Source: a candidate division BRC1 bacterium ADurb.BinA292
GTDB taxonomy: Bacteria > Sumerlaeota > Sumerlaeia > MVZB01
Length of the DNA: 39,157 bases
Assembly: GCA_002068205.1 (NCBI GenBank)
Contig: MVZB01000001.1
Location: forward strand, 1 to 39,157
Reading direction: 5' to 3'
Position 1 is the first letter of the stretch, and the number at the start of each line of letters is the position of its first letter. Position numbers and translations under genes: made by a program. A model generated the notes under the pieces. It did not search any database. It was not told the DNA's origin and saw only the letters and a program-made list of their open reading frames with translations. Positions 7,971 to 36,808 of this stretch are shown here, piece after piece.

Positions 7971-8114
7971 GGCCCAACGTCGTCTTCGTCCCCGCTCGCC
8001 GATCCCGTCTCATGCCCGCGGCGTGCGCGAAGCTTCGCCGCCGGGTATGATGACCGGGCCGAGGGCGTCGGTTGGCGCCCCCGCCAAATTTCCTGTAAAG
8101 GACGACCTCCCCAG

Positions 8115-17334: not shown

Positions 17335-17364
17335 GGAGGCAGAGGTTTGTCCCTCGTGATCGTC

Positions 17365-17594
17365 CTCACTCGAAAATCTGTCCGCTATTCGCGGGATCGC
17401 CTGGATCGGTTCTGCCGTCCCTAAGGGACTCTGTCGCTAGGGGTGTGCCTGTTTCCCGCCACTGGAGTAGCGGGCTGAAGTCTGCCGTCCCTGACGGGAC
17501 TGCCCTGCTGAAGAATCCGGCAAGGCCAAGGCTGTTCGACTCGGCAGTTTGCCCCCCCATTTCCATCCCTCGTTGTGAAGCGCGGGTTCATGAG
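17365..17594. repeat. structured intergenic repeat element, copy A (core)
   Basis: Aligns block by block with 27449-27674, 33353-33574 and 36371-36700. Shared blocks are CTCACTCGAAAAT, GATCGGTTCTGCCGTCCCtaaGGGAC, CCCGCcactggagtaGCGGGCTGAAG, CTGCCGTCCCTGACGGGACTGCC and CCCTCGTTGTGAAGCGCGGGTTCATGAG. It is flanked by a 9-bp inverted repeat: GTCCCTCGT (17349-17357) and ACGAGGGAC (17615-17623). Confidence 0.85.
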
Positions 17595-17662
17595 CCTCGC
17601 AATCGGATTCGAAAACGAGGGACGAGAGACGAAGGGAGGGGGGATTGGCAGAGGAACCCGCT

Positions 17663-18676
17663 TTATTCCTTCAGGTACTCCTCCAGCGGCGGCGCGATGA
17701 CTTCCTGAATCTCGGGCAGCTCGAAGTTCTCCCGTGTCACCAGCGCGACGCCGGTGTCGATCCGATCCGCCACCTCGTCGCCGGCGAGGGCGCGCGCGGC
17801 CGCCATCACGCCTTCATAACCCATCAGGAACGGATTCTGCACGACCAGCCCGTCGATCTGCCCCGCCTTCAGGGCGTCGAGCAGTTTGGGGCTCGCATCG
17901 AACCCAATGAACCTGACCTTGCCCGCCAGGCCATGGTTGCGCAGGGCGAGCAGCATGCCGAACGTGCTCGATTCGTTCGGACAGAAGATGCCGTCGATCT
18001 GCTGGTCCTTCAGCGCGTTGAGCAGGCTGTTGCTCTTCTGCAACGCTTCGTCGGAGGTGGCGCCGGCATACTGGTTTTCGCTGATGACCTTGATCTCGGG
18101 AAACTCGGCAATGGCTTTTAGGAAGCCGGCCTCGCGCGCCTCGGTGGAGGCGCTGCCGACGGCGTAGCGCAGCATGATGACATGGCCCTTGCCGCCGAGC
18201 AGCCGGCCCAGTTCGCGTCCCGCCAACTCGCCCCCCCGCTCATTGTCGGTGGCGACGAAACTGACAATCTCGACCCCCTCGCGTTCGATGTCGCTGTCGA
18301 TGATGACGACGGGGATGCCGCGCCGGTTGGCCTGAATGACGGCGTTGCGCAGCGAACGGGCGTCGAGCGGCGCCAGCACGATCGCATCGGTCTTCTTCGC
18401 CACGTGCGATTGCACGATCTGGATCTGGCTGTTGCGGTCGTCCTCGCGCAGCGGCCCCTGCCAGGTGATCGCAACCTGGTCCAGTTCGCGATCGGCCTTG
18501 GCGGCGCCGGCGTGAACCGCCTGCCAGAAATCATGCGTCGTTCCCTTGGGGATGACGACGATGTTGGAACCCTCGCCCGCCTGCGCGTGAAGCTGAGGCG
18601 CGGCGAACGCGACCAGCGCCGCGACGGCGGCCAGGCGCCACGCGGAGCGCGCGAGCGAATGGAAATGAACGGGCAT
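17663..18676 (-). CDS. periplasmic sugar-binding protein (RbsB-like) of the ABC transporter
   Basis: I place the start at ATG 18676 (MPVHFHSLARSAWRLAAVAALVAFAAPQLHAQA signal peptide, GGAGAG Shine-Dalgarno). Blocks IVVIPKGTTHDFWQAVHAGA, DAIVLAPLD and GIPVVIIDSD are typical of the Peripla_BP family. The 58 codons upstream in the track ORF look spurious. Confidence 0.85.
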   Translation of the reverse strand: MPVHFHSLARSAWRLAAVAALVAFAAPQLHAQAGEGSNIVVIPKGTTHDFWQAVHAGAAKADRELDQVAITWQGPLREDDRNSQIQIVQSHVAKKTDAIVLAPLDARSLRNAVIQANRRGIPVVIIDSDIEREGVEIVSFVATDNERGGELAGRELGRLLGGKGHVIMLRYAVGSASTEAREAGFLKAIAEFPEIKVISENQYAGATSDEALQKSNSLLNALKDQQIDGIFCPNESSTFGMLLALRNHGLAGKVRFIGFDASPKLLDALKAGQIDGLVVQNPFLMGYEGVMAAARALAGDEVADRIDTGVALVTRENFELPEIQEVIAPPLEEYLKE

Positions 18677-19126
18677 GATTGACTCTCCTCTCGGCACGGA
18701 TTCACCCAAGCCCGAGCATTTTAAGTCGCCGCCCACCGGGCTGCAAGCGATCCGGACCGACTGATCCCGATCGCCGTTCGCGATCATCGCGCTTCCCCCG
18801 CGCCCCTGGCGGAATTGCCGACTTCGGCATGCGGCCCGCTTCTTGCTCACAGCAGCTTAAACGGCCGGGCGCTCCGCCCCGCGCGGCGCGGCCGCCCGAC
18901 CAGTTGCCCCATGCGAGGCTGCATCATGGCGAAGTCAACGACCAAACAGATTGGCCGGCGGCGGCGAGAGCCGGTTCTGCCAACTCGTCAGCCGACACGG
19001 CGCATCATCATTTCCCCGCGGGTAATTTCCATTGGAATTTTTGGATAATTCAAACGACGCACCGTCCAGTCATCCCGAGGGGCTTACTCCCCGGGGTTCG
19101 ATCCAAACGCGAAGAGGGTAATTACA

Positions 19127-19288
19127 ATGAGTATCGTCGGCATGATCCTGTTGATCCTGTTGATCATGATTGTTCTGGGCTCGCTCCCTGCGTGGCCCTA
19201 CAGCCGCGGCTGGGGCTACTATCCCAGCGGATCGGTGGGATTGATCCTCATCATCGTGATCGTGCTTCTGGTGCTTGGCGTGATCTGA
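19127..19288 (+). CDS. small membrane protein, DUF3309-like
   Basis: A 53-aa ORF below the track cutoff, found by eye: MSIVGMILLILLIMIVLGSLPAWPYSRGWGYYPSGSVGLILIIVIVLLVLGVI. The WPYSRGWGY core between two TM helices is the DUF3309 hallmark as I recall it. GAGGG lies upstream. Confidence 0.7.
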   Translation: MSIVGMILLILLIMIVLGSLPAWPYSRGWGYYPSGSVGLILIIVIVLLVLGVI

Positions 19289-19350
19289 GCGTCTGAACCG
19301 CAATCCCCCTGTTGTAACTCCCCGCGAGGCGGCGTCGGCTGTTTTTACAA

Positions 19351-20522
19351 ATGGAAGTATTCGAGCACGTGATTCTTGGGGGCGGCGTCGCCGCCGGCCA
19401 CGCCGCCCGCGAGTTCGTCAAGCGGGGCGTTAAGCCGGGTCAGTTGGCCCTTGTTTCGGCCGAGGCCTCGTTCTGCTACGAACGCCCACCGCTTTCCAAG
19501 GCCCTGCTGGCGGGCACGAAGCGGCCCGAGGAAACGCTGATCAGTCCCCCCAGGTTCTATGCGGAAAACGGCATTGCCTTTTATCATGAATGGCGCGCCG
19601 TCGGCATCGACTTCGGCCGGCGGCTGATGATGAACGATCAGGGCGAGACGATCGGCTTCCGCAAGCTGATGCTGGCGACCGGCTCGCGGGTGCGCAAGCT
19701 GGCCATCGCCGGCGGCGATCTGCCGGGCGTGCATTACCTGCGGACGCTGGAGCATGCGCGCGCGATCGTCGGCGCGCTGCGCGACGTGCGGCGCATCGTC
19801 GTCATCGGCGGCGGCATTTCACGCCCGAAATCTCGGCTTTCTTCAAGGGCTACTTTCAGAGCAACGGTATTCATCTTATCTTTTCCGCCAGGCCCGCGGC
19901 GCTTCACGGCCCAGAGCATGTCACGCGCGTCACGCTGGAGACCGGCCAGTCGCTCCCCGCCGAAATGGTGGTCGTCGGCATCGGCGTCGTGCCGGAGCTG
20001 GAGCTGTATCGTCAGACCGGCCTGCAGCTCGACGCGGGCGTCCTGGCCAACCAGTTCCTCGAGACCAACATCCCCGATGTCTGGGCCGTCGGCGACATCT
20101 GCCAGTATGAGGATGTGCTGTTCGGCAAGCGCCGGCGCATCGAACACTGGGATAACGCCAAAAGCCAGGGCGAACACGCCGCGCGCGCGATGCTCGGCCG
20201 GCGCGAACCGTTCATACACGTGCCCTACTTCTTTTCCGACGTGTTCGATCTGTCGTGGGAATTCTGGGGCGACACCGAGGAGGCGGATCGCGTGCTCTAC
20301 CGCGGCGATCTGGGGCGCGGCGGCATCAGCGCGTGGTGGCTGCGCGGCGACCAGGTGCACGCCGCGTTCGTAATGAACCGGCCCGATGAAGAACGGCGCG
20401 CCGCGCCGCTGCTGATCGCGCACGGCACGCCGATCAACGCCGAATGCATTGCCAACATGGAAATTCCACCGGCGCGATGGACCCCGGCGCAGAACTGCGA
20501 AACTGGTCCCTCTCTTGCTTAG
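19351..20522 (+). pseudogene. FAD/NAD(P)H pyridine-nucleotide-disulfide oxidoreductase (ferredoxin-reductase-like) with an out-of-frame internal deletion
   Basis: Frame 1 reads MEVFEHVILGGGVAAGHAAREF...LMLATGSRVRKL...RRIVVIGGG and then nonsense. Frame 2 resumes at about 19818 with FTPEISAFFKGYFQSNGIHL...VVVGIGVVPE...VWAVGDIC...IEHWDNA. The roughly 30 residues that normally follow the second GxGxxG (yIGlE.A..l...G..Vt...) are absent. Confidence 0.7.
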
Positions 20523-20621
20523 TAAATCATTAACGGGACGGCGCGCGAGGAACTCCCCGCAAATTCATCTCCTGTCCCGCTTCAATCATCCCTGGGGTGA
20601 TTCCTTCGGAGGTTAAGGACC

Positions 20622-20795
20622 ATGTTATACTGGGCTCTCGTGTTCTTCATTCTGGCGCTGGTCGCCGGTCTGCTCGGCTTTGGCGGGCTCTACGCCGCGT
20701 TCGCGACGGTTGGCAAGATTCTGTTCGTCATCTTCCTGATCGTCTTCCTCGTCTCGCTGATCATGGGTCTGGTCGGCGGACGGCGAGTCGTCTGA
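20622..20795 (+). CDS. small membrane protein, DUF1328 / UPF0391 (YtjA-like)
   Basis: A 57-aa ORF below the track cutoff: MLYWALVFFILALVAGLLGFGGLYAAFATVGKILFVIFLIVFLVSLIMGLVGGRRVV. The LGFGG..a..a.iaKiLFf.Fl pattern is characteristic. GGAGG lies 8 nt upstream. Confidence 0.75.
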   Translation: MLYWALVFFILALVAGLLGFGGLYAAFATVGKILFVIFLIVFLVSLIMGLVGGRRVV

Positions 20796-20810
20796 GCCTC
20801 TGCTTGCGCA

Positions 20811-20845
20811 CCCCGCCCTCTCGTCAGGGCGGGGTATTTGTTTTT
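20811..20845 (+). terminator. rho-independent terminator after the DUF1328 gene
   Basis: An 8-bp GC stem, CCCCGCCC (20811-18) with GGGCGGGG (20827-34), followed by TATTTGTTTTT. Confidence 0.6.
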
Positions 20846-21181
20846 CAGCGGACTGCTGGGGAAATCCCCCACCGATCCGACCGCATTCGTTCCCACCCGC
20901 GGGTCCTGTTTCACGGAAATTGTCCGTCGGCTGCTTCCGTTAACAAAATCTGCAATACACATTCTCGGGCTGATTTGCTAACCTGACATACCGCGGCCCT
21001 TACAACCCAGGGCGCCGCACGGGGGCAAGTCGAACACGAGACTGACAGGGGAATCGCTCCCCGCCAGGCGCCGCCGACAGGCAGCATGGTTTAGAATCCC
21101 CGCCACCGGGGCGGGGAGCATCGCAGCGCGCAGCGGCGCAACAACCGGGCTGCCCATCATCAGGAAGCAACGACGATCCGG

Positions 21182-22246
21182 ATGAATTCGAAGATCACCG
21201 TTACGCAGGTCCCGCTCCAGCAACTGATCGACGTGCTCGACGTGGGCATCCTGGTGCTGGGGCGCGACGGTCAGCCCGATTTTTCCAATGCGCCCGCGCG
21301 CATGCACTTCGGCTGCACCCGACACGATGATCTCGTCGAACGCTGGCAGCAGATTGACCGCGAGCTGAATGAGATCCCGACCGACGGCCAGGGCGCCGTC
21401 GCCTGCACCGTGCAGCTCGAAGTCCCCGGCCCGGTGCGCGCCCGCCGGCTGCAACTGGAATTCTATCCGCTCAACCATGAGGACTGCGAAGGCCAGATCG
21501 TCCTGATCCGCGACCGCGAAATGCTCGACGCGATGGAAACCGACCTGCGCCTGGCCTCGCGCTTCCGCGGCCTGACCCGGCTCTACCGCGCCATCGCGCA
21601 CGATCTGAAGGCCCCGCTCAACGCGATGGTGATCAACCTGGAACTGCTCAAGGAGACGATCAATCTCCCCCATCGCGATGCCTCGACGCAGGAACGCAAG
21701 GACCGCTATGTGAACATCCTGATGTCGGAACTGGGCCGGCTCAACCGCACGCTGCAGCTCCTGCTGACGCAGGCCGATCTGTCGACGAAGTCCAGCGAAC
21801 GGATCGACCTGGGCGAGATCCTGCTCGATGTGGTGACCCTGCTGACCCCGCAAGCCAAACAGCAGGAGATCTCGGTCAATTATCACCTGCCCGAGGAGCC
21901 CGTGCTCATCATCGGCAGCGAGGACTGGCTCAAGCAGGCGGTGCTCAACATCACGATCAATGCCCTGGAGGCGATGGATCGCGGTGGACGGCTGACGATT
22001 CGGCTCCATGTCAAGGAACACGTCGCGACGCTGCTGGTGGAGGACACCGGCTCGGGGATCTCGCAGGAAGACCTGGAAAAAATCTGGAACATGCATTTCA
22101 CGACGAAGTCATCCGGAACGGGGATCGGGTTGTACGTCAGCCGCTCGGTGATTCAGTCGCACGGGGGGAGCATCGACGTGATGAGCGTCCCCGGCGAAGG
22201 CAGCCTGTTCCGCATAACCCTTCCCACCGCCGGAAAAGAGAACTGA
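21182..22246 (+). CDS. sensor histidine kinase (PAS-like N-terminus, HisKA, HATPase_c), cytoplasmic
   Basis: 354 aa. H-box YRAIAHDLKAPLNAM, N-box LNITINALEAM, G-boxes EDTGSGI and GTGIGLYVSRSVIQSHGGSI. Confidence 0.9.
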   Translation: MNSKITVTQVPLQQLIDVLDVGILVLGRDGQPDFSNAPARMHFGCTRHDDLVERWQQIDRELNEIPTDGQGAVACTVQLEVPGPVRARRLQLEFYPLNHEDCEGQIVLIRDREMLDAMETDLRLASRFRGLTRLYRAIAHDLKAPLNAMVINLELLKETINLPHRDASTQERKDRYVNILMSELGRLNRTLQLLLTQADLSTKSSERIDLGEILLDVVTLLTPQAKQQEISVNYHLPEEPVLIIGSEDWLKQAVLNITINALEAMDRGGRLTIRLHVKEHVATLLVEDTGSGISQEDLEKIWNMHFTTKSSGTGIGLYVSRSVIQSHGGSIDVMSVPGEGSLFRITLPTAGKEN

Positions 22247-22254
22247 GGTAGACG

Positions 22255-23625
<1,371 letters not shown>

Positions 23626-23728
23626 AGGGCTGAAGGCTGTTTTTCAGGGTTGGTTCGATAGCGATAGCGATCCCGATCCCGATAGTGGCGTCGGCGTGTC
23701 GTTTAGTCCCCGGCTGTTTCCCCCAGTT

Positions 23729-23819
23729 TGTTTCCAATTGAAAGAACGGCTCGGCTTGCGATTAGATGGAAGCACTTCCGCTGTCATCGGGAAGAAGTCA
23801 TCGTGTTTCCAACACGGAA
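23729..23819. promoter_or_regulatory. cluster of TTCC/GGAA inverted repeats (candidate enhancer/UAS for the NtrC-type activator)
   Basis: TGTTTCCAATTGAAA (23729-43), GGAAGCACTTCC (23768-79) and TGTTTCCAACACGGAA (23804-19). They lie 35-125 nt upstream of the -24 element. Confidence 0.3.
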
Positions 23820-23851
23820 GGCAGCCCATCGGAACCGCGCCCGGCGGTTGT

Positions 23852-23867
23852 TGGCACAAATGCTGCT
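23852..23867 (+). promoter_or_regulatory. sigma-54 (-24/-12) promoter
   Basis: TGGCACaaatgCTGCT. The GG (23853-54) and GC (23865-66) have the canonical 12-nt register of TGGCAC-N5-TTGC. It sits directly downstream of a sigma-54 activator gene and about 105 nt upstream of the next ATG. Confidence 0.55.
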
Positions 23868-23971
23868 TTGGGTGCGGTCACAGCCGATGGCTGCCCGGCC
23901 GGGAGGAAGTGCCGTTGGCCATCCACGCCACCCCTTCCCCCGCGATTCCCCCTGAAGAAAGGTTGATTGAA

Positions 23972-24163
23972 ATGCTGACTCACTTCACGGTGGCCTTTAG
24001 GCGTGTGCTGATGCTGTTGGCGCTGCTCTTCGCCAGCGTCGCGGTCATGCCGACCCTCGTGGCCTGCAACGGCGGCGCCGAGGACAATCTGGAAGACGCC
24101 GGCGAAAACCTGGGCGACGCCGTCGAGGATCTGGGCGACGCGGCGGAGGATGCCCTCGACTGA
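23972..24163 (+). CDS. small acidic lipoprotein (63 aa)
   Basis: MLTHFTVAFRRVLMLLALLFASVAVMPTLVAC with the lipobox LVAC. The mature part, NGGAEDNLEDAGENLGDAVEDLGDAAEDALD, is made of degenerate acidic repeats. GAAAGG lies upstream. It is the 3' part of track ORF 23696-24163, whose upstream part starts at a GTG and looks non-coding. Confidence 0.55.
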   Translation: MLTHFTVAFRRVLMLLALLFASVAVMPTLVACNGGAEDNLEDAGENLGDAVEDLGDAAEDALD

Positions 24164-24209
24164 TTTGATCCGCCGGCGGCCTTCCCGCTGGCGGCACGGG
24201 TCCCTTCAG

Positions 24210-24246
24210 GCGGACAGCCTGCCCGCACGGGCGCTGTCCGCTTTTT
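24210..24246. terminator. bidirectional rho-independent terminator
   Basis: A 9-bp stem, GCGGACAGC (24210-18) with GCTGTCCGC (24233-41), followed by TTTTT. It lies between the convergent lipoprotein gene and the GH-like gene. Confidence 0.55.
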
Positions 24247-25277
24247 CATTCCACCGCCGCGCCGGCCATGCCGGCCGCCTCCCACCGCACCAGATCCCGG
24301 CTGCGCGCGATTCCCAGCCGGTTCCATCCGCGGCCGCCGAAATCCGCGCGCCGCTGCCCGTTGCTGCCCGCATAAAACAGGTAGAACCAGCCGTCGGTCG
24401 CGCGCCGGTCCAAAAGCCAGGCGCCGTTGGCCAGGATTTCCCGGTTGAAGTCCTGGACCGGGATGTCCAGCGCGGTCCCGTTCTCCCAGCGCGAGAATCT
24501 CAGCCCCGCGCTGGTCGATTCGGGCCGCTCGAACAGATACGGCCGATGGCGATCCTCGCGCGCCGCCGCCAGCAGGCGCCACCCCTCCCCGATGCGCAGG
24601 ACCTGGAAGCTGGCGAAATACGGCCGGTGCGCGCCGTCGACCGTGCTCAGCTCCAGGTATCCCGGTCCCAGCCACGCAAAGTCGCCGACGAGCCGCTCGC
24701 CATGGGCCACGCGCGGCAGCCGCCCCTGGTTCCAGATCAGAAGGTGGACCTCGCCGAACGGCGCCAGGGCGGGGTCGACCGCCCGCGCCTCCCCAGTCAG
24801 GTTGGCCGCCAGGGGGCGGGGACTGGACCAGGCCATCAGGTCCGGCGACTCACACCAGAAGAGCGCGTTGGGCTGCTCCGGCGCGTCGCCCCACGAATTG
24901 CCGACCAGGACATAGCGGTTTCCGTCGTGCACGACATAGGGCGAAGCGGTCCCGCGCCAACCGCGGCTCGCGCCGTCCAGCCGGTTCACCTCGGCGAATC
25001 GCACCAGATCGGCGCTTGTGTACTGGACGATTGTGCAGTTCGGCGCGTCCCCGGATTCCTGGAAGGCGGAGCAGAAGATGTGGAACAAGCCGTCGGCCTC
25101 GACGACGCAGAAATCGTGCAGCGATTGATCGTGATCGCCGAGGATCGGATTGCGCAGGGCCTCCCAATCCAGCTCGGCCGGCGCCGCCCCGGCGGCGAGC
25201 GTGAAGCAAAGCAGGCCCGCGGCCGCGACGCGACGCGGAAGACCTACCAATTGTGATAGCCGCTCAGCCGTTTTCAT
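24246..25277 (-). CDS. secreted beta-propeller glycoside-hydrolase-like protein (GH43/GH130-like fold; family uncertain)
   Basis: I place the start at ATG 25277 (MKTAERLSQLVGLPRRVAAAGLLCFTLAAGAAPA signal). Recurrent propeller-blade-like blocks include DFCVVEADGLFHIFCSA, SPYVVHDGNRYVLV, GWFYLFYAG and WNRLGIARSRDLVRWE. The coding call is more secure than the family call. Confidence 0.5.
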   Translation of the reverse strand: MKTAERLSQLVGLPRRVAAAGLLCFTLAAGAAPAELDWEALRNPILGDHDQSLHDFCVVEADGLFHIFCSAFQESGDAPNCTIVQYTSADLVRFAEVNRLDGASRGWRGTASPYVVHDGNRYVLVGNSWGDAPEQPNALFWCESPDLMAWSSPRPLAANLTGEARAVDPALAPFGEVHLLIWNQGRLPRVAHGERLVGDFAWLGPGYLELSTVDGAHRPYFASFQVLRIGEGWRLLAAAREDRHRPYLFERPESTSAGLRFSRWENGTALDIPVQDFNREILANGAWLLDRRATDGWFYLFYAGSNGQRRADFGGRGWNRLGIARSRDLVRWEAAGMAGAAVE

Positions 25278-25282
25278 CGCCG

Positions 25283-25381
25283 TTCCGTCCCTTTCGTCCA
25301 TAGTTCGGCTCTCGTCCTCGTCCTCGGCTCTCGAAAACCCGTCGATTCGATCCCGATAGCGATCCCGGTCCCGCTACCGAT
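25283..25381. repeat. partial repeat modules shared with other intergenic regions
   Basis: 25304-25355 (CGGCTCTCGTCCTCGTCCTCGGCTCTCGAAAACCCGTCGATTCG) aligns with 36742-36800 (CGGCTCTCGTCTTTCGTCCTCGGCGCTCGAATATTCGCAATCGGTCGATTTT). 25346-25381 shares TTCGAT-NNN-GATAGCGATCCCG-R-TCCCG with 23654-23686. Confidence 0.5.
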
Positions 25382-25452
25382 GGAAGGAGTCGCATCCCGC
25401 CGCCGGGTTGGCTATGCTCGGGGCAATTCTTGTCTGCAAGGAGTCACGCCCC

Positions 25453-26412: not shown

Positions 26413-26432
26413 CCGTCGCGCGCGGCCGGCGG

Positions 26433-27359: not shown

Positions 27360-27369
27360 GGGCCGTATT

Positions 27370-27674
27370 AGAAGGGACAGAAAGGACATAAGGGATATAA
27401 AGGACGGATAGGGGCCATTATCATCCGTTCAGGGTACGTCGTGAAGAGCTCACTCAAAGACATGTCCCCCAATCTGGAGATCGCTTGGATCGGTTCTGCC
27501 GTCCCTACGGAACCCTATAGCTATGGGCATCCCGGTTCCCGCCGCTGAAGTAGCGGGCTGAACACTGCCGTCCCTGACGGGACTGCCCCGCGGAGGACCC
27601 GGCCAGGCCGAAGGCGTTTGGATCGACGGTCCACCCCCAGTTTCCTCCCTCGTTGTGAACCGCAGGATCATGAG
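27370..27674. repeat. structured intergenic repeat element, copy B (core 27449-27674, plus 5' purine-rich module 27370-27413 and shared linker)
   Basis: Same block order as copy A. The invariant GTCCCTGACGGGAC is at 27570-27583 and CCCGCcgctgaagtaGCGGG at 27537-27556. The upstream part (GAAGGGACA...TCATCCGTTCAGGGT...GAGCTCACTC) is shared with copy C. Confidence 0.85.
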
Positions 27675-27767
27675 CAACTCGTAGTCGCTCCCAGAGGCCA
27701 ATCTTTTCAAACCGCCGGTTTGTGCCGCCGGCGTTTGCCGTTTCATGTGCCCTGTGCTTCGTGAATA

Positions 27768-29153: not shown

Positions 29154-29155
29154 CG

Positions 29156-31129
29156 ATGCGGCGCTACCCGCGCATCGTCCGCGTCCTGCGCTGGCTGCTC
29201 CTGCTGATCGTCGTCGCCGGACTGCTGGTCTACCTGATGCAGCTCGTGCGCCACGGCCGGACGAGTTATCGCCACGGCATGTTCGCCATCATCACCGGGC
29301 CGTACCAGTGGTCGTGGCAGGTCCATCCCGGGCTCAGCCTGCGCTGGCTGGGCGCCTACGCACTGATGGCGTGGCTCGTCTGGGGCGGCCGGCTGCGCGC
29401 GCTGGCGGCGAGCCTGCCCGCGCGCATGCTGATCATGACCCCGATCCTCGTGCTGGCCGGCTACCTGACCGTCTCGCACGGAACCGGCGCGCCCGACATC
29501 CAGCCGGCATTCTTGCTGGCGGTCATCGTGGTCGCGGTCGCGGCGTCGTATTTCATCGCGCGGCTGGACGACCGGCCGGCCCTGCCCGGCCCCGCCCCGC
29601 GCTGGGAGGCGCCGCTGCTCTACGGGCTGGCGACCGCGGCGGGGGTCGGCGTCGCGGTTCTGTGCTGGCGCCTGGTGTACCACGGTTTTCCGATCATGAT
29701 GGACGCCCAGTCGCAGGTCGTCCAGGCGCGCATGCTCTGGCAGGGACGCTGGGTGTTGCCGATCTCACAGGCGCTGCGCGACGTGATCGAATTCCCCAAT
29801 TCCGTTTTCACCGTCCCGGTTTATTCGCAATACCCGCCGGGCTATATTTTCCTGCTGATCCCGGTGGTGGCGCTGGACCTGCCCCCGCAGACGCTCAACC
29901 TGGCGGCGGGCGGGGGCCTGGTGGCGCTGACGGCCTGGCTGGCGCGGCGGCTCGGCGGCGCGCGGGCCGGCTGGGCGGCCGCCGTCCTCTGCGCCGGCTC
30001 GCCGTTCATGATCCTGTGCGGCACGGCGATGAACCACGCCACCAGCGCTCTGGCACTGCTGGGAACGACCTGCTGCCTGCTCCCCCGGCTGGGCCGCGCC
30101 GAGCCGCGACGCTGGGCGCTGCGCGGCCTGGTCGGCGGCCTGCTCCTCGGCTGGGCCGTATCGACCCGACCCCTGACCGGATTGGCGCACGCGCTCGTCT
30201 GGCTGGCGGCGTGGCTGGCGCAACTGGGCGAACTGGCGTGGCGCCGCCGCTCCGGCCGGATCGTCCGCCCCGGGCAGACCCTGGCCGCCGTCCTCTGGCG
30301 CGGCCTGTGGGTGCTGCTCGGGCTTATCCCGCCCGCGCTGCTGTTCATGTTCTACAACCTGAAGACGACCGGCAGCCCGTTCATCTTCGCCTACGAGGTC
30401 AGCAATCCCGACCTGCATCGGATCGGTTTCGGCCAGGCCACCGAACTCCATTACACCCCGGCCGACGCGCTCCACAACTCCATGGCGAGCTATCTGGACC
30501 TCAATATCAAGCTGTTCGGCTGGGCGGTGGGCTCCTGGACGCTGATCCTGGCGTGGTGGCTGCGCGCGCGCCTGACCCGGGCGGAGCTGACGCTCCTCGG
30601 GTTGATCGTGTCCCAATCGATCTTCTACGGCCTGTATCAGTATCACGACCTGATTCTGGGGCCGCGGTTCCTTTTCGATCTGCTGCCGTATTTCGCGGTG
30701 CTGGCGGCGCTCGGGCTGGCTCCCGCACTGCGTCGCGGGCGACGCCGGGGGATGGTGCTGGCGCTGATCGTCTTCGCATTTTCGATCGTCGGCATTCAGC
30801 GCGGCATCAATTTCTGGATCACCAAATTCCGGCCGGTGATCGAGCGCAACGTCCAGTTCGCCGGGTTCATGGACGAGATCGAGCCGCTCGAGGGGCCCAC
30901 GGTCGTCGTCATGGACCAGCCCTACAACGAGGTCATCGGCCAGTACTTCCAGCACCCGCGCTATCAACACCCGCTCTGGTTCGTCTTCGAGCATCGCGAG
31001 GCCGAAGCGCGCCTGCTTCCGGAACTGGCCGGGTTCCACTGGGTCCGATTTGATGACGGCAACCGTCCGGCGCCGGGCCCGCCCCCGGAACTTCCGCAGT
31101 TCCCTCAGGGCGGCGAACCGGCAAGTTGA
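29156..31129 (+). CDS. polytopic membrane protein, GT-C fold (ArnT/PMT-like) glycosyltransferase candidate with an N-terminal extension
   Basis: The ATG is 2 nt after the Wzt stop, suggesting translational coupling. There are at least 12 hydrophobic segments. The loop motif MDAQSQVVQARMLWQGRWVLP ... YSQYPPGY resembles the D(E/x)..y...A..m...G.w..P ... KPPL pattern of GT39/GT83 enzymes, but it starts about 190 aa in. Confidence 0.5.
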   Translation: MRRYPRIVRVLRWLLLLIVVAGLLVYLMQLVRHGRTSYRHGMFAIITGPYQWSWQVHPGLSLRWLGAYALMAWLVWGGRLRALAASLPARMLIMTPILVLAGYLTVSHGTGAPDIQPAFLLAVIVVAVAASYFIARLDDRPALPGPAPRWEAPLLYGLATAAGVGVAVLCWRLVYHGFPIMMDAQSQVVQARMLWQGRWVLPISQALRDVIEFPNSVFTVPVYSQYPPGYIFLLIPVVALDLPPQTLNLAAGGGLVALTAWLARRLGGARAGWAAAVLCAGSPFMILCGTAMNHATSALALLGTTCCLLPRLGRAEPRRWALRGLVGGLLLGWAVSTRPLTGLAHALVWLAAWLAQLGELAWRRRSGRIVRPGQTLAAVLWRGLWVLLGLIPPALLFMFYNLKTTGSPFIFAYEVSNPDLHRIGFGQATELHYTPADALHNSMASYLDLNIKLFGWAVGSWTLILAWWLRARLTRAELTLLGLIVSQSIFYGLYQYHDLILGPRFLFDLLPYFAVLAALGLAPALRRGRRRGMVLALIVFAFSIVGIQRGINFWITKFRPVIERNVQFAGFMDEIEPLEGPTVVVMDQPYNEVIGQYFQHPRYQHPLWFVFEHREAEARLLPELAGFHWVRFDDGNRPAPGPPPELPQFPQGGEPAS

Positions 31130-31167
31130 ACCAGAGCCGTTCGGCGTGGGACCGGCGCGCTCGCCAG

Positions 31168-33171
31168 TCATCCGCCCGCCGCTTCGGATCCCCCACCGCC
31201 CGGTTGATAATCCGGGATCAGTTCCTTGAGCATCCGGCGGATCGCGGCGTCGTCCCGCAGCACGGCCAGCGCCTCCAGCTCGAGGATCCGCGGTCGCAAT
31301 TGCTCCCAGTCGTGCGCCGGCTGCGACGAACGGAAAATCTTCGGATGCGCCGTCGGCTCGCGGCCCTGCTCGGCCGTCAACAGCTCCTCGAACAGCTTCT
31401 CGCCGGGCCGCGCCCCCGTGAAGACGAGCGGGATATCGCGCTCGGGCTCCAGCCCGCTCAGCGTGATCAGGTTGCGCGCCAGATCGACGATCTTGACCGG
31501 CTCGCCCATATCGAGCAGGAAGACCTCGCCCCCCTGGCCCTGCGAGCCGGCCTCGATCACCAGGCTCACCGCCTCGGGGATCGTCATGAAGTAGCGCGTC
31601 ATCTCCGGGTGGGTCAGCGTCACCGGCCCCCCCGCCTGGATCTGCCGGCGGAAGAGGGGAATCACCGAACCGCGGCTGCCCAGGACGTTGCCGAACCGCA
31701 CGGCGACGAAGCGCGTCGCCCCCGGTCGGTTCAGCGCGCTCACGATCATCTCGGCCAGGCGCTTGCTGGCGCCCATCACGCCGGTCGGCCGCACGGCCTT
31801 GTCGGTCGAAATCAGGATGAATCGCTCGACCCCGGCGGCCCGCGCCGCCTCGGCCAGGACGCGCGTCCCCATGACGTTGTTCTTGATCGCCTCGGCCGGC
31901 TGCGCCTCCATCAGATGGACGTGCTTGTGCGCCGCCGCGTGCAGGATCACGGCGGGCCTGGCTTCGGCCAGCAGCGGCTCGATCAGCGCCGCGTCGCGGA
32001 CGTCGCCCACGACCAAGCGCAGCGCGGCGCCCTGCTCCCGGGCCGGCGCCGCCAGCTCCTGGTGGATGTCATAGAGGCTGTTCTCGCCGCGCCCGAGCAG
32101 AATCAGCTCGCTGGCCCCATGCGCGAGCGCCTGGCGCGCCAGTTCGCTGCCGATCGACCCGCCGGCCCCCGTGATCAGCACGCGCCGGCCCGTCAGGCAC
32201 GATTCGGCCGGCCCCGCCCCGCGCACGACCACCGGCGGCCGGCCCAGCAGGTCCTCGATCTCCACCGGCCGCAGGCGGCTGACCTCGACCTGGCCGTGGA
32301 CCACCTCCTCCATATTGGGCACGGTGCGGAACGCCAGCCGCGCCTCGCGGCAGTGGTCGACCACCGACCGCATCAGCGCCGGCGTCGCGCGCGGCAGCGC
32401 GATGATCAGCATGTCGATGTGATGGCGCCGGGTCAGCTCGGGCAGGTCCTCGATCCCGCCGGCGACAACCAGACCGTGGATTCGCCGCCCGCGCAAGGCC
32501 GGGTCCGGATCGGCGAAGGCCACCGGCCGCAGCCCCGCCGCCGGGTTGCGCCGCAGATCGCGCGCCACCTGTTCCCCGGTATCGCCCGCGCCCAGGATCA
32601 GGACGCGCCGCGCGCGCGGCGCCCCCGCCAGGCCCGCGGGAAACCGCTCCGCCACCAGCCGCCGGCTCAGCCGCAGCCCGAGCAGGAACGCGCCGGCCAG
32701 CAGCGTGTCGATGACGACGACGCCCCACGGCACGCGCAGGACGTGAGCCCCGCCGGAGGCCAGCGGGTAATTGCCCAGCGACGGGATATACCGGTGGATG
32801 AAGTTGAACACGATCAGCCCGCCGGTGCCGGTGAGCACCGCCAGGACGATATTGACCGCCTCATCCAGGCCGGTGTAGCGCGTGAAGCCGTGATAGAGCC
32901 CGAAGCGCCAGAGCGCGAAGAGACGCAGCGCCACCAGGCACGGCACGAGGTAGAAAAACTGCCGGATATAGTCTTCGCTGAACCGGTCAGGCTGCAGGTC
33001 GAAGCCGATGCTGTAGGCGAGGCCGAAGGCCCCGGCGATGAGGAGGATATCGGCCAGGGCCAGGATCAAGCGCCGCAAGCGCGGATGGCGCGCCATCAGG
33101 CCGGCGAACTGCCCGACGGCGGGCGGGGCGGGGGAGGCGCCGGGCGGCGGTTGGGGATCGGAGGGGTTCAT
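31168..33171 (-). CDS. membrane-anchored nucleotide-sugar 4,6-dehydratase (CapD/PglF/WbpM family)
   Basis: 667 aa. Four N-terminal TM helices, then two Rossmann regions: VLILGAGDTGEQVA and VLITGAGGSIGSELARQ. Also NVMGTRVLAEAA and STDKAVRPTGVMGASKRLAE. Confidence 0.9.
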   Translation of the reverse strand: MNPSDPQPPPGASPAPPAVGQFAGLMARHPRLRRLILALADILLIAGAFGLAYSIGFDLQPDRFSEDYIRQFFYLVPCLVALRLFALWRFGLYHGFTRYTGLDEAVNIVLAVLTGTGGLIVFNFIHRYIPSLGNYPLASGGAHVLRVPWGVVVIDTLLAGAFLLGLRLSRRLVAERFPAGLAGAPRARRVLILGAGDTGEQVARDLRRNPAAGLRPVAFADPDPALRGRRIHGLVVAGGIEDLPELTRRHHIDMLIIALPRATPALMRSVVDHCREARLAFRTVPNMEEVVHGQVEVSRLRPVEIEDLLGRPPVVVRGAGPAESCLTGRRVLITGAGGSIGSELARQALAHGASELILLGRGENSLYDIHQELAAPAREQGAALRLVVGDVRDAALIEPLLAEARPAVILHAAAHKHVHLMEAQPAEAIKNNVMGTRVLAEAARAAGVERFILISTDKAVRPTGVMGASKRLAEMIVSALNRPGATRFVAVRFGNVLGSRGSVIPLFRRQIQAGGPVTLTHPEMTRYFMTIPEAVSLVIEAGSQGQGGEVFLLDMGEPVKIVDLARNLITLSGLEPERDIPLVFTGARPGEKLFEELLTAEQGREPTAHPKIFRSSQPAHDWEQLRPRILELEALAVLRDDAAIRRMLKELIPDYQPGGGGSEAAGG

Positions 33172-33277
33172 CGTGCCCCAAAGGTAATGAGCCCGCTCCC
33201 CGCTTGCAACCTGACTCTAACCGCCGTCGGTCAGTGAAAAAACTGTCCCCGGGACCTCCGACGATGATTTTCGTTTC

Positions 33278-33574
33278 AGAAGGGACATAAGGTAAAGGAC
33301 GCATGCGGGGCGTTTTCATCCATTCAGGGTGACGCCGAGGTGTCGTGATAAGCTCACTCGAAAATATTGCCCGATTCTCGGGATCGCTTGATCGGTTCTG
33401 CCGTCCCTGCGGGACTCAGCCGTTGTGGGGATCCCGGATCCCGCCACTGAAGTAGCGGGCTGAAGTCAACCGTCCCTGACGGGACTGCCTGCGGAAGGAT
33501 CCGGCAGGGCCAGGGTCATTCGAGTCAGCCGTTCACCCCGTGTTTCAATCCTCGTTGAAGCGCAGGTTCATGCG
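33278..33574. repeat. structured intergenic repeat element, copy C (core 33353-33574, plus 5' module)
   Basis: Same block order as copies A and B. GTCCCtgcGGGAC is at 33403-33415, CCCGCcactgaagtaGCGGG at 33439-33458 and GTCCCTGACGGGAC at 33472-33485. Confidence 0.85.
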
Positions 33575-33740
33575 TTGATTCTGGGATTTCGCGCGGCTCA
33601 GGGAGGAGCCTGGCATCCTTGCGGGATGCGGGGATGTCGGGCGGCCGTCAACCGGTGGCGTCGCCGCGCTCAACCACGGGCTACCCTCTGGCACCCCTGC
33701 GGATGCGGGCTGGACCCATTCGAGCCGCTCCGACCCGCGC

Positions 33741-34055
33741 TCAATCCAATCCCCGGCGTTTCAGATCAGGCAGCGTCTCGGGTTTGCCCGCTTCCATGAC
33801 CTTGCTCTCACCGGGCAACGCGGTCACGTTCTCGTAAACGCCCGAGTCGCGCCGGACGAGCTTGGTGAAGCCCATCGACTTCAGTTCACTGTCGGTCGTT
33901 GGCGTCGAAATGTTGGGCAGCGAAATCAGCCGTTTGACCGGCCCGCCGCACTCGGGGCAGGTCGTGAGGGCGTCTTCGCTCATCGCCTGGGTCCGTTCGA
34001 AGAAACGGCCCACCGCGCAGGGGTCGGCCAGATGCTCGTATTCATAGACAGGCAT
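33741..34055 (-). CDS. FmdB-family zinc-ribbon protein
   Basis: Start MPVYEYEHLADPCAVGRFFERTQAMSEDALTTCPECGGPVKRLIS. The MP.YEY start and the CPxCG knuckle are the FmdB signature, although the first CxxC pair is reduced to a single Cys. The upstream 33 codons of the track ORF are Gly/Ala-rich and probably not translated. Confidence 0.6.
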   Translation of the reverse strand: MPVYEYEHLADPCAVGRFFERTQAMSEDALTTCPECGGPVKRLISLPNISTPTTDSELKSMGFTKLVRRDSGVYENVTALPGESKVMEAGKPETLPDLKRRGLD

Positions 34056-34363
34056 GGGAAACATCCCCGGCGTTGCGGTCTGGGTGGCGGCCGGCGATTC
34101 CGCGCCGGCCCGAAACCCACCTCCACCCTTATTGTCGGCACAACGCCCGCCCAACGCAAGCCGCGCGCCCCTCAGCGGAAAATGCGTCCAAGGTAAGCGG
34201 CCGCTCGGAATTTCGCGGCGTCGGCGGGCGAGCCCGCGCCGGCTGGCGCGACGCCCTGCTTTGAAAAAGGGGGGGCGTGTGGGGTATGCTCTTTAGCATC
34301 CGGATTGAGCATGGGAATCGGCCCTTCTGATCCGGCAATCGACGGAAGGACAGGTACGGCTTC

Positions 34364-36196
34364 ATGTGCGGAATCATCGGGATGATCTCGCGGCGCGACG
34401 TCGGCACCGCGCTGATCGAGGGGCTCAAGAACCTGGAGTACCGCGGCTACGACTCGTGCGGCTTCGCCACGCTGTGCGACGGCCGGTTCGTGATCCACAA
34501 GGAGGTCGGCCGCGTCGATCGCCTGGATGCCTACCTGCCGGAGACCGAGGGCTGCCACATCGGGATGGCCCACACCCGCTGGGCGACGCACGGCCAGCCA
34601 TCCGAGGCCAACGCCCACCCGCACCTGAGCTACGACGGCCGGTTCGCCGTCGTGCACAACGGCATCATCGAGAACTACAGCGTCCTGCGCGAATACCTGC
34701 GCAAGCAGGGCATCGAATTTCGCAGCGAGACCGACACCGAGGTGATCGCCCACCTGATCGCCCACGAGTACCGCAACAGCACGATGCAGGCGGTGCGCGA
34801 TACGCTGGCGCGGCTCGACGGGACGTTCGGCCTGCTGATCCTCGACCGCGACGATCCGCACCGGATGATCGCCGTCCGCCAGGGGAGCCCGCTGGTGCTC
34901 GGCGTCGGCGACGGCGAGTTCTTCGCCGCCTCGGACGTCTCCGCGCTGATCCAGCATACCCGCCAGGTGATCTACCTCGACGACGGCGAGCTGGCCGAGC
35001 TGACGCTGACCGGCTATCGCACCGCCACATTCACCACCGACCTGACCGTCGTGCACGAGACGACCGAGGTCGACTGGGAGATCGAACAGATCGAAAAGGG
35101 CGGCTTCGAGCACTTCATGCTTAAGGAGATCTTCGAGGAGCCGCAGGCGCTCCGGAACACCTTCGCCGGCCGGCTGCGGCCCGATGAGGGGATCGTCAAG
35201 CTGGGCGGCATCGCCAGCCTGGAGGACGACTTCATCCGCGAGATGCGGCGCATCCTGATCACCTCGTGCGGCACCGCGTGGCACGCCGGCCTGATCGGCG
35301 AATACATCCTCGAGGAACTGGCCCGGATCCCCGTCGAAGTCGAATATGCGTCCGAATTCCGCTACCGCAACCCCCTGATCACGCAGGAGGACCTGCTGAT
35401 CGTCATCAGCCAGTCGGGCGAGACGGCCGACACGCTCGCCGCGCTGCGCGAGGGCAAAACCCGGGGCGCCGAGGTCATGGGCATCTGCAACGTGGTCGGC
35501 TCGACGATCGCCCGCGAGGCCGGCCGCGGGATCTACACGCACGCCGGCCCGGAAATCGGCGTCGCCTCGACCAAGGCGTTCATCACCCAGGTGGCGGTGA
35601 TGCCGATGCTCGCCCTGCAATGGGGCCGCCTGCGCGGCTCCGTCTCGGCCCAGACGGTCGAACGCATGATCGCGCAACTGGGCCGCATCCCCGATCATGT
35701 CGCGGCCGTCTGCGATCAATCCGACCAGATCCGGACGATCGCCGAGCAGTACTGCGAGCACCGCAACTTTCTCTACCTGGGGCGCGGGATCAACTTCCCG
35801 GTCGCGCTGGAGGGCGCTCTCAAGCTGAAGGAAATCTCCTACATCCATGCCGAGGGCTACCCGGCGGCCGAAATGAAGCACGGGCCGATCGCGCTGGTGG
35901 ATGAGAACATGCCAGTCGTCGTCATCGCTACCAAGGATCCGGTTTATGACAAGGTGATTTCCAATATTCAGGAAATCCGCGCGCGGCGCGGCCGCGTGAT
36001 CGCGGTCGCCACCGAGGGGGATCAGGAGATCGCCCACCACTGCAACGATGTGATCTACGTGCCCGAAGTCGACCCGCTGCTGACCCCGATCGTCAACGTC
36101 GTGCCGCTGCAGTTGCTGGCCTATCACATCGCCGTCCTACGCGGCTGCGACGTGGACAAGCCGCGCAACCTGGCCAAGAGCGTGACCGTTGAGTGA
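34364..36196 (+). CDS. glmS: glutamine--fructose-6-phosphate aminotransferase (isomerizing)
   Basis: 610 aa. The MCGIIG N-terminal nucleophile, RGYDSCG, HTRWATHG, two SIS domains (SQSGETADT) and the canonical C-terminus PRNLAKSVTVE. Confidence 0.97.
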   Translation: MCGIIGMISRRDVGTALIEGLKNLEYRGYDSCGFATLCDGRFVIHKEVGRVDRLDAYLPETEGCHIGMAHTRWATHGQPSEANAHPHLSYDGRFAVVHNGIIENYSVLREYLRKQGIEFRSETDTEVIAHLIAHEYRNSTMQAVRDTLARLDGTFGLLILDRDDPHRMIAVRQGSPLVLGVGDGEFFAASDVSALIQHTRQVIYLDDGELAELTLTGYRTATFTTDLTVVHETTEVDWEIEQIEKGGFEHFMLKEIFEEPQALRNTFAGRLRPDEGIVKLGGIASLEDDFIREMRRILITSCGTAWHAGLIGEYILEELARIPVEVEYASEFRYRNPLITQEDLLIVISQSGETADTLAALREGKTRGAEVMGICNVVGSTIAREAGRGIYTHAGPEIGVASTKAFITQVAVMPMLALQWGRLRGSVSAQTVERMIAQLGRIPDHVAAVCDQSDQIRTIAEQYCEHRNFLYLGRGINFPVALEGALKLKEISYIHAEGYPAAEMKHGPIALVDENMPVVVIATKDPVYDKVISNIQEIRARRGRVIAVATEGDQEIAHHCNDVIYVPEVDPLLTPIVNVVPLQLLAYHIAVLRGCDVDKPRNLAKSVTVE

Positions 36197-36229
36197 CCGG
36201 CGCCGCGCGCGCCTCGAATCTTTGTTATC

Positions 36230-36254
36230 GAACCGATAAATCGGTTCTTCTATC
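36230..36254 (+). terminator. hairpin GAACCGA-taaa-TCGGTTC plus T-rich tail after glmS (weak terminator candidate)
   Basis: A 7-bp stem 34 nt after the glmS stop, followed by TTCTATC. The U-tract is poor. Confidence 0.35.
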
Positions 36255-36267
36255 TGACGGACGGTGA

Positions 36268-36308
36268 CCGTGGGTTGAATGGCCGCCGGGCAGTCATTCA
36301 ACCCACGG
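36268..36308. other. perfect 14-bp stem hairpin (CCGTGGGTTGAATG / CATTCAACCCACGG, 13-nt loop)
   Basis: Read directly from the sequence. It is bracketed by a 10-bp direct repeat TATCGAACCG at 36226-36235 and 36315-36324. Confidence 0.6.
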
Positions 36309-36370
36309 CTTGGATATCGAACCGCTGACGCGATTCCTGAGTTCCCGCCCCTGAAGTATTTGTCATTGCC

Positions 36371-36700
36371 CAAATTCAGACATGTTCCGGCCGCCCCTTC
36401 CAGGGGCTTGAATCGTTGGAGGCGGCGACGCAGGGTTGCGGCCTTCGACCTCCACCCTGCGCTTTATTCCCGTCGTTCCGCTTCGCGGACTCAGCCGGCA
36501 ACCGAGTCGGAATCGCCTGCATTGGTTTTGGAACCTTGAGCGGATTGCGATTTGGGGAACGACCCGCACTGAAGTAGGGGGTTGTAGTCTATCGTCCCTG
36601 ACGGGACCGCCCGGCTGACGGACCCGGCAAGCTCTGGGGCGCTCGAATCGGCCGTTCACTCCCCACTTTCATCCGTTGGTTGTATACTGCCGGTTCATGG
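36371..36700. repeat. structured intergenic repeat element, copy D (divergent, with insertions)
   Basis: It retains the block order: CAGACATGTTCCGG, the hairpin GCCCCttccaGGGGC, GT(T)CCGCttcGCGGACTCAGCC, CCCgcactgaagtaGGG, the invariant GTCCCTGACGGGAC (36594-36607), CCGGCAAG, CGAATCGGCCGTTCACTCCCC and TTTCATCCGTTGGTTGTATACTGCCGGTTCATGG. Confidence 0.7.
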
Positions 36701-36808
36701 CGACTCGTCATCGTCCCAAACGACCCACCCCCAAATGCGGTCCCGGCTCTCGTCTTTCGTCCTCGGCGCTCGAATATTCGCAATCGGTCGATTTTGGCCG
36801 CGCCCATC

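Follow-up and report, generated by a model that had tools for sequence, protein, structure and literature searches.

What is the ~250-nt repeat that occupies several intergenic spacers of a contig from candidate division BRC1? The window, that is, the whole stretch of DNA analyzed here, is a single 39,157-nt contig of a metagenome-assembled genome (MAG) of candidate division BRC1/Candidatus Sumerlaeota, and the samples are of the digester type. The repeat is called E in the following; X, G, and Y are the names given to further repeats in the same spacers. An earlier note on this DNA had described four copies of E (A to D) and could not assign them to any known RNA or mobile-element family. This does not hold, because the core formed by the third and fourth hairpins of E (H3 and H4) matches Acido-Lenti-1 (Rfam RF01687). 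We slightly favor the reading that E is a lineage-amplified, modular, nonautonomous intergenic DNA repeat resembling repetitive extragenic palindromes (REP) and bacterial interspersed mosaic elements (BIME), built around an Acido-Lenti-1 core and transcribed passively with its neighbors.

At the gathering score, the Rfam search of the window gave no match. In E-value mode, RF01687 (gathering score, 37 bits) matched copy A at 17455-17501 with 32.3 bits, copy C at 33440-33486 with 32.1 bits, and copy B at 27538-27584 with 28.9 bits; copy D gave no Acido-Lenti-1 match. The matches cover model positions 1-46 end to end, and the part of E involved is H3 plus H4. The scores of A, B, and C below 37 bits can be attributed to one C.A mismatch in H3. 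Fifteen sibling copies of E on other contigs of the population reach 37.9 to 48.4 bits and pass the RF01687 threshold of 37, indicating that the family is already catalogued. The core of E consists of two hairpins and a linker as in RF01687, CCCGCCACUGAAGUGGCGGG-CUGAAGUCUGCC-GUCCCUGACGGGAC-U. The earlier note had itself named a match to a described Rfam family as the result that would remove the novelty, and the search returned such a match.

Acido-Lenti-1 has been described from Acidobacteria and Lentisphaerae as probably a noncoding RNA, in some cases found close to group II introns (Weinberg et al. 2010, PMC2864571), and Rfam places RF01687 in the class Gene; sRNA (small RNA). According to the published alignments (PMC2864571), the seed also has single cases in a planctomycete and in Geobacter, covariation is present in both stems (NUM_COV 10), and Lentisphaera araneosa has ~55 copies, many in tandem at 74- to 200-nt periods and locally co-oriented. 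The loop and linker bases of the motif are kept across phyla while the stems covary. In the flanks of the published sequences from Lentisphaera and Koribacter (PMC2864571), an H2-type hairpin (CCGUACCUUCGGCACUC, CGCCCCUGACGGGGCUC) is located ~25 to 30 nt upstream of the motif, indicating that the H2-H3-H4 architecture is common across phyla. The published Acido-Lenti-1 flanks inspected contained neither the 5' module of E (CTCACTCGAAAAT plus H1) nor its 3' module of ~110 nt. E is a phylum-extending, much larger member of a known, functionally uncharacterized family.

The four-copy repeat is real. As the earlier note had described, copies A, B, and C align block by block and are co-oriented on the plus strand; they are full-length homologs, colinear from CTCACTCGAAAAT to ...TTCATGAGC(AACTCG). 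With a profile built from the copies, the nhmmer E-values were 1e-69 to 1e-84 for A, B, and C and 1e-55 to 1e-84 for all four copies, and the mean column identity of the A/B/C/D alignment was 73%. The shared blocks that had been listed are present, the 15-mer CGTCCCTGACGGGAC being exact in 4/4 window copies, and the gene contexts of A, B, C, and D are those given before. The blocks, hairpins, and copies are as follows (ABC, ATP-binding cassette).

Block order of E: CTCACTCGAAAAT; variable hairpin; GATCGGTTCTGCCGTCCC-N3-GGGAC; CCCGCC-loop-GGCGGG; CGTCCCTGACGGGAC; CCGGCA.GGCC; C-run; CTCGTTGTGAA..GC.GG.TCATG
H1 of E: variable hairpin
H2 of E: GTCCC-N3-GGGAC
H3 of E: CCCGCCAC-TGAA-GTGGCGGG
H4 of E: GTCCC-TGAC-GGGAC
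H5 of E: TGAACC-GCA-GGTTCA
17349-17612, plus strand: copy A, with the pyrimidine lead-in GTCCCTCGT/TCGTCC at 17349-17364 and CTCACTCGAAAAT at 17365
17382-17394, 17417-17429, 17455-17474, 17486-17500, and 17576-17590: H1 to H5 of copy A, with the C-run at 17552-17558
Site of copy A: the 328-nt spacer, filled by the copy, that separates the sugar-binding-protein gene (minus strand, 18850 to 17663) from the ABC ATPase gene (minus strand, from 17334)
27449-27690, plus strand: copy B
27465-27480, 27501-27513, 27538-27557, 27569-27583, and 27656-27670: H1 to H5 of copy B
Site of copy B: between the divergent Peptidase_MA gene (minus strand, from 27359) and Wzt-type ABC ATPase gene (plus strand, from 27768)
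33353-33580, plus strand: copy C
33370-33382, 33403-33415, 33440-33459, 33471-33485, and 33556-33570: H1 to H5 of copy C
Site of copy C: between the CapD-like gene (minus strand, from 33171) and the Zn-ribbon gene (minus strand, 34055 to 33741)
25302-25380, plus strand: solo 5' fragment of E (GGCTCTCGTCCTCGTCCTCGGCTCTCGAAAACCCGTCGATTCG...), immediately upstream of where the GH43-like gene starts (minus strand, from 25301)

On the strand of the GH43-like gene, the solo fragment reads ...UUUUCGAGAGCCGAGGACGAGGACGAGAGCCGAACU-AUG. Terminal inverted repeats are absent from E, whose ends, CTCACTCGAAAAT... and ...TTCATGAGCAACTCGTA, share a mere 5-nt inversion, GCTCA/TGAGC. A likeness between the two ends (ACTCG.AAT) does not covary within copies. 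No target-site duplication was present at the copies with unique flanks (L038b, L044, L045, and L055; the numbers from L032 to L055 denote metagenome contigs that carry E, X, or fragments, and L062 a contig of a relative).

Copy D had been described as a fourth core at 36371-36700, but positions 36371-36566 belong to X, a miniature inverted-repeat transposable element (MITE), and D is a chimera of two repeats rather than a diverged full copy. It matches E in its 3' half, 36567-36710, from the right arm of H3 to the 3' end, and has in addition a degenerate 5' remnant. The left arm of H3 (36344-36358) falls outside the core coordinates assigned previously. The parts of this composite, which is located downstream of glmS, are as follows.

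36310-36358, plus strand: degenerate 5' remnant of copy D, ending with the left arm of H3, CCCGCCCCTGAAGTA, at 36344-36358
36359-36566, plus strand: element X, a ~208-nt MITE inside the H3 loop (CCCGCC...GGCGGG)
36567-36710, plus strand: 3' half of copy D, comprising the right H3 arm, H4 (36593-36607), H5 in degenerate form (36683-36697), and the 3' end TCATGGCGACTCG
36711-36785, plus strand: 3' extension, ...CCCACCCCCAAATGCGG..CGGCTCTCGTC.TTCGTCCTCGGCGCTCGAATATTCG, common to D, L039, L047, and L050a

X is a separate MITE with both classical features, inverted ends and target duplication. In D, its terminal inverted repeats are 14 nt long (GTCATTGCCCAAAT at 36362-36375 and ATTTGGGGAACGAC at 36550-36563, 86% complementary), and the target duplication CTGAAGTA is found at 36351-36358 in the left arm of H3 and at 36569-36576 in the right arm. 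L046 carries the same arrangement, CCCGCCACTGAAGTG-[X]-CACTGAAGTGGCGGG, with a perfect 10-bp direct duplication, CACTGAAGTG; once X and one of the duplicates are taken out, H3 is intact again. Across the contigs there are six copies of X (36359-36566 of the window, L046 ~8084-8289, L032 ~7356-7530, L048 ~1200-1370, L043 ~10904-11008, and L037 ~7521-7658), and the family has terminal inverted repeats of 14 to 20 nt (TTGTCATTGCCCAAAT.../...ATTTGGGGAACGAC) and target duplications of 8 to 10 bp. X sits in the H3 loop in D and L046, and in L032 and L037 it adjoins one arm of H3. The composite structure of D is attributed to the H3 loop being a preferred target of X. Within X, a terminator-like hairpin, CGCAGGGT...ACCCTGCG followed by CTTTATTCC, is located at 36429-36470, and the 3' half of X resembles the 5' part of E (GGAATCGCCTGCATTGGTTTTGG versus GGGATCGCCTGGATCGGTTCTGCC). 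A plasmid BLAST search with X gave no match, and no autonomous partner of X was identified.

The spread of E was followed beyond the window. Copies were gathered by a pattern scan of metagenome contigs, which gave 25 loci, and then by nhmmer, which found ~18 copies of nearly full length, 7 partial ones, and several fragments on these 25 loci. E or its fragments occupy at least 21 distinct intergenic loci of one population, the contigs being at least 99% identical wherever they overlap, which bears out the earlier view of a multicopy family. About 200 kb of the population genome, a part of it, was inspected. A tRNA gene (7898-7971) and an RNase P RNA gene (8523-8935, 259 bits) on L038 are ~200 to 800 nt from the E copy L038b, indicating that the E-bearing contigs are chromosomal. 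The tRNA and tmRNA scan of the window itself found none.

Outside this population, E was not encountered. Neither E nor Acido-Lenti-1 was found in ~132 kb of relatives (GlmS 74 to 77% and sugar-binding protein 68 to 70% identical), and a plasmid BLAST search with E gave no match. A scan of viral contigs gave two matches, by chance only. In the GTDB representative genomes, a 32-column pattern fitting 4/4 copies gave 22 loci, all of them chance matches in coding DNA. The GTDB scan did not return the source species, although NCBI has several assemblies of this population; the collection may not include it.

The copies bear marks of insertion and duplication. In the orthologous operon of L062, identity to the window genes is 69% for the binding protein, 64 to 67% for the ATPase, and 72% for the permease, and the stop codon of the binding-protein gene overlaps the start of the ATPase gene (GTGA), whereas in the window the two are separated by the 328-nt spacer that copy A fills. 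This indicates an empty and a filled site, across a large evolutionary distance. The synteny around glmS was not conserved in the relatives in which empty sites of C and D were sought. In L037 (4345-4861), a full unit of E is followed by two partial units in tandem, and after D, L039, L047, and L050a comes another, truncated unit; the extension at 36711-36785 resembles the start of such a further, truncated unit, as would be expected from tandem partial duplication. An internally deleted copy, fragments of the 3' end only, and solo fragments are also present.

The description of E as structured is correct locally, there being five short hairpins, and incorrect globally, the fold energies not differing from those of shuffled sequences. 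Folds of the whole element showed no gain over dinucleotide shuffles on either strand (z = +0.6, -1.5, 0.0, and +0.5). RNAalifold on 3 and on 18 sequences returned poor consensus structures with a covariation term near zero, and an all-against-all search for stacked column pairs was swamped by conserved sequence. For the five hairpins in 15 nonredundant intact copies, 366 cells are Watson-Crick pairs, 15 are G.T, 11 are A.C, and 26 are other mismatches. The wobbles thus favor neither strand, and true mismatches equal them in number (26 versus 26). Both partners are changed in 5 pairs on the plus strand and in 4 on the minus strand. The covariation score was 0.105 versus 0.090 for shuffles on the plus strand (reached by 15/500 shuffles) and 0.079 versus 0.058 on the minus strand (reached by 0/500), with the caveat that related sequences can beat shuffles without any structure.

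E does not code for protein, which the earlier note had already judged unlikely: past the G/C run the copies are no longer in one common frame, and indels of 1 to 2 nt are common. A small protein on the minus strand was considered and rejected, since there are three frames after the G-run and the changes in the conserved stretch ELLMNLRFTTRDENG are mostly nonsynonymous.

Of the three explanations put forward before, a novel noncoding RNA family, a MITE/BIME-like nonautonomous element, and a protein-binding DNA module, the second fits best. Copies of E arose through insertion in the spacers between genes and, locally, through partial duplication in tandem, and since then they have been drifting apart, with their stems decaying symmetrically on both strands. 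The H3 loop is a preferred target of a second element, X. The spread of E may have been brought about by a trans-acting enzyme that recognizes hairpins on one DNA strand, for which a transposase of the HUH/Y1 type, as in REP-RAYT systems or elements derived from IS200/IS605, serves as the model by analogy. Such an enzyme would account for the lack of inverted repeats and target duplications, the same orientation of neighboring copies, and the conservation of loop and linker, alongside covarying stems, across phyla. Single copies would be transcribed passively with their neighbors, copy A being inside an operon. They may alter mRNA stability or the translation start, as the position of A and that of the CTCACTCG end, usually just upstream of a start codon, would allow, and they would not be independent, individually selected RNA genes.

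Several observations weigh against this reading of E as a passive DNA repeat. The sole empty site comes from a distant relative (~69% protein identity). No presence/absence polymorphism of E was found among the at-least-99%-identical strains on overlapping contigs, and there is thus no evidence of current mobility. E lacks inverted repeats and duplications and has its hairpins on one strand, as in the IS200/IS605 type, but its left flank shows a weak preference, ..TCGTC/GTC in 5/14, and no clear target of that type. No transposase was found in the parts of the genome inspected, and the proposed enzyme is purely inferred. The GC skew had no consistent sign relative to the orientation of E, which it does not tie to the direction of replication. 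H4 and the 3' block are kept more strongly than simple decay predicts, the near-invariance of H4 being imposed in part by the search pattern. In 12 to 13 of 17 intact copies, no more than 90 nt separate the CTCACTCG end, with its TCGTCC(C) lead-in, from the start of a co-directional gene. On the annotated strand of the published Acido-Lenti-1 seed, A.C outnumbers G.U by 38 to 8 (70 distinct sequences, not phylogenetically independent; supplementary file 183, PMC2864571). The last two observations point to a single-strand function, possibly of RNA, and are not explained by pure selfish DNA. The gene-start bias could stem from a preference for certain targets, or E could have been exapted as a leader or ribosome-binding module.

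The alternative that takes this bias at face value holds that E is a cis-acting, mobile 5'-leader or intercistronic RNA module of the minus strand, which supplies or modulates a ribosome-binding site, insulates the gene against transcription coming from upstream, or stabilizes the mRNA. On the minus strand, E ends with H1, AUUUUCGAG, and a purine-rich GAGGACGAGG tract, corresponding to the lead-in, just upstream of the start codon. Three of the exceptions, which are counted separately, are copies that X disrupts, the solo 5' fragment is placed likewise before the gene at 25301, and copy A lies in the sense direction inside its operon. The wobble asymmetry of the published seed also favors the minus strand here, but the E family itself shows no G.U excess on that strand. 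H1 followed by AUUUUC is terminator-like on the minus strand in B and C only, and there the U-run is short and begins 5 to 6 nt past the stem. In B and C, moreover, the mRNA strand is rich in pyrimidines from E to the start codon. The genes downstream have unrelated functions (ABC ATPase, peptidase, CapD-like, radical-SAM, and others) and do not form the one functional class looked for in a riboswitch or leader. E occurs in convergent, divergent, and co-directional gene contexts, the convergent ones including L045 and L055, and the orientation bias could equally reflect a target-site preference. We consider a leader function of this kind unlikely.

A wider proposal, likewise tentative and improbable in our view, is that Acido-Lenti-1-type elements, E among them, are functional single strands from the strand opposite to that annotated in Rfam, either as a mobile 5'-leader RNA cassette or as a hairpin-guided single-stranded-DNA transposition substrate. 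It is kept alive by the seed asymmetry, by the adjacency to gene starts, and by the strict co-orientation of neighboring copies, all copies being in the same orientation on each contig with two or more substantial copies of E. If Acido-Lenti-1 acts as a single strand, the wobble asymmetry of the seed makes the strand opposite to the Rfam strand (the minus strand here) the more likely one. A leader cassette, if this were true, would equip whichever gene it lands before with a hairpin, a U-tract, and a tract for ribosome binding; a transposition substrate would imply an undescribed single-stranded-DNA transposition system common to Lentisphaerae, Acidobacteria, Planctomycetes, and Sumerlaeota.

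That each copy of E is an independently transcribed, trans-acting sRNA gene, as the Rfam class implies, is quite unlikely. The covariation in both stems of the Rfam seed and the loop and linker bases kept across phyla speak for an RNA gene, as do the E hairpin covariation scores slightly above those of shuffles, which relatedness alone can produce. The window copies, however, contain no sigma-70-type promoter, no convincing terminator, and no significantly stable fold, and their covariation is weak. The sole sigma-70-like match near any copy, TTCACG-17-GATAAT, runs from 27445 to 27417 on the minus strand, in the G module beside B. Stem mismatches equal to wobbles, relatives without E, and the tandem partial units, truncated copies, and MITE-split copy are unexpected for selected genes.

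It is very improbable that E is a clustered protein-binding DNA module and marks a site array for a regulator or nucleoid protein: GGGAC/GTCCC recurs in H2, H4, the TCGTCC(C) lead-in, and the G modules, and H4 with its TGAC loop is nearly invariant, but that invariance is in part a product of the search pattern, there is no known candidate protein, the neighboring genes are not linked into a regulon, and the hairpin form with covarying stems in other phyla fits a folded single strand better than a duplex.

The occurrence of X, G, and Y in the same spacers as E indicates that the intergenic DNA of this genome is a repeat patchwork. The G module beside B (27369-27445, plus strand) consists of short GGGAC/AAGGAC repeats every 8 to 10 nt, followed by CATCCGTTCAGGGT..GTCGTGA (CATCCGTTCAGGGTGA..GTCGTGA). 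It is also found beside C (~33276-33350), in L034 (~9545-9660), and in L048 (~1040-1090), attached to either end of E. Repeat Y is located directly downstream of C (33609-33712) and of L043a/b (L043 ~2520-2620 and ~7940-8000), and its sequence is CTGGCATCC.TGCGGGATGCGGG...GGGCGGCCG..CCGGTGG.GTCGC.GCGCTC.ACCAC.GGCTA..CTCTGGCA.CCCTGCGG.ATGCGGG. Tandem hexamers of the GATAGCGATCCCGAT type (GAT.. C/G-rich periodicity) occur in several spacers (23649-23684, 25341-25376, and L043 ~7900-7940), one of them adjoining the solo fragment of E.

The search for transposase, integrase, and reverse-transcriptase domains in the window genes was negative, in agreement with the earlier statement that the window contains no transposase. 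The ABC ATPase gene beside copy A (minus strand, 15852-17334) is split into two open reading frames, 17334-17017 and 17012-15852, and lacks ~65 residues relative to its L062 ortholog; the L052 strain differs at this gene by an indel (70 nt versus 26 nt). The split may represent a pseudogene, strain variation, or an assembly error. Downstream of glmS there are a terminator-like hairpin at 36230-36247, GAACCGAT-AAAT-CGGTTC followed by TTCT, and a long hairpin with a 14-bp stem at 36268-36309, CCGTGGGTTGAATG...CATTCAACCCACGG.

The main value of this locus is a rereading of what Acido-Lenti-1 is. The motif has been an orphan of Rfam since 2010, and its range is now extended to a fourth phylum-level lineage, BRC1/Sumerlaeota. 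Here a much larger modular repeat is built around the 46-nt motif, and a third hairpin is common across phyla. The copies behave as DNA repeats, as seen in the empty site of the relative, the tandem partial units, the symmetric decay, and the MITE nested in the H3 loop, and the locus suggests that the annotated strand of Acido-Lenti-1 may be the wrong one. Together, the larger repeat, the DNA-like behavior, and the doubt about the strand argue for moving the family from 'sRNA gene' toward 'repetitive extragenic hairpin element.' Genome annotation of Sumerlaeota MAGs should avoid labeling such spacers as novel noncoding RNA genes. The literature on REP-associated tyrosine transposases (RAYT) with Lentisphaera and on repeats of Sumerlaeota yielded nothing relevant.

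Compared with known systems, E, which on the favored reading falls into one class with REP/BIME, BOX, and Correia elements, shares with the pneumococcal BOX and Neisseria Correia elements a modular build with full, truncated, and rearranged versions, a location near gene starts, and the capacity for cotranscription. There is no sequence similarity to either, and E lacks the terminal inverted repeats and the TA duplication of Correia elements.

In E as in Acido-Lenti-1, one stem of 8 bp carries a loop of the CUNA(C/A)G type, the 12-nt linker reads GGCU.A...UGCCGU, and ACU comes after the other stem, which has 5 bp. Both are multicopy, clustered or tandem, and intergenic regardless of the orientation of the neighbors, with no fixed gene association. 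The Rfam model covers 46 nt, whereas the E unit is ~250 nt, with CTCACTCGAAAAT and H1 added on the 5' side and CCGGCAAGGCC...C-run...CTCGTTGTGAACCGCAGGTTCATGAGCAACTCG on the 3' side. The host of E belongs to a new phylum, BRC1/Sumerlaeota, outside the range of Acidobacteria and Lentisphaerae, which extends Acido-Lenti-1 and does not disqualify E.

The REP/BIME-RAYT systems and the palindromic elements of the IS200/IS605 group differ from E in some respects. E is ~250 nt with five hairpins, whereas a REP palindrome is 20 to 40 nt. Unlike REP/RAYT, E has no GTAG-type head motif, and no RAYT or TnpA gene was found in the inspected DNA; the two similar hairpins of E (H2 and H4) are internal rather than subterminal. 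Like E, these elements are high-copy extragenic hairpin repeats without terminal inverted repeats or target duplications. REP/BIME sequences also lie between the genes of operons, a REP being present in the malE-malF spacer of E. coli, just as copy A follows the binding-protein gene. They can likewise be the targets of further mobile elements: IS1397 and ISKpn1 enter the loops of REP, as X does the H3 loop of E.

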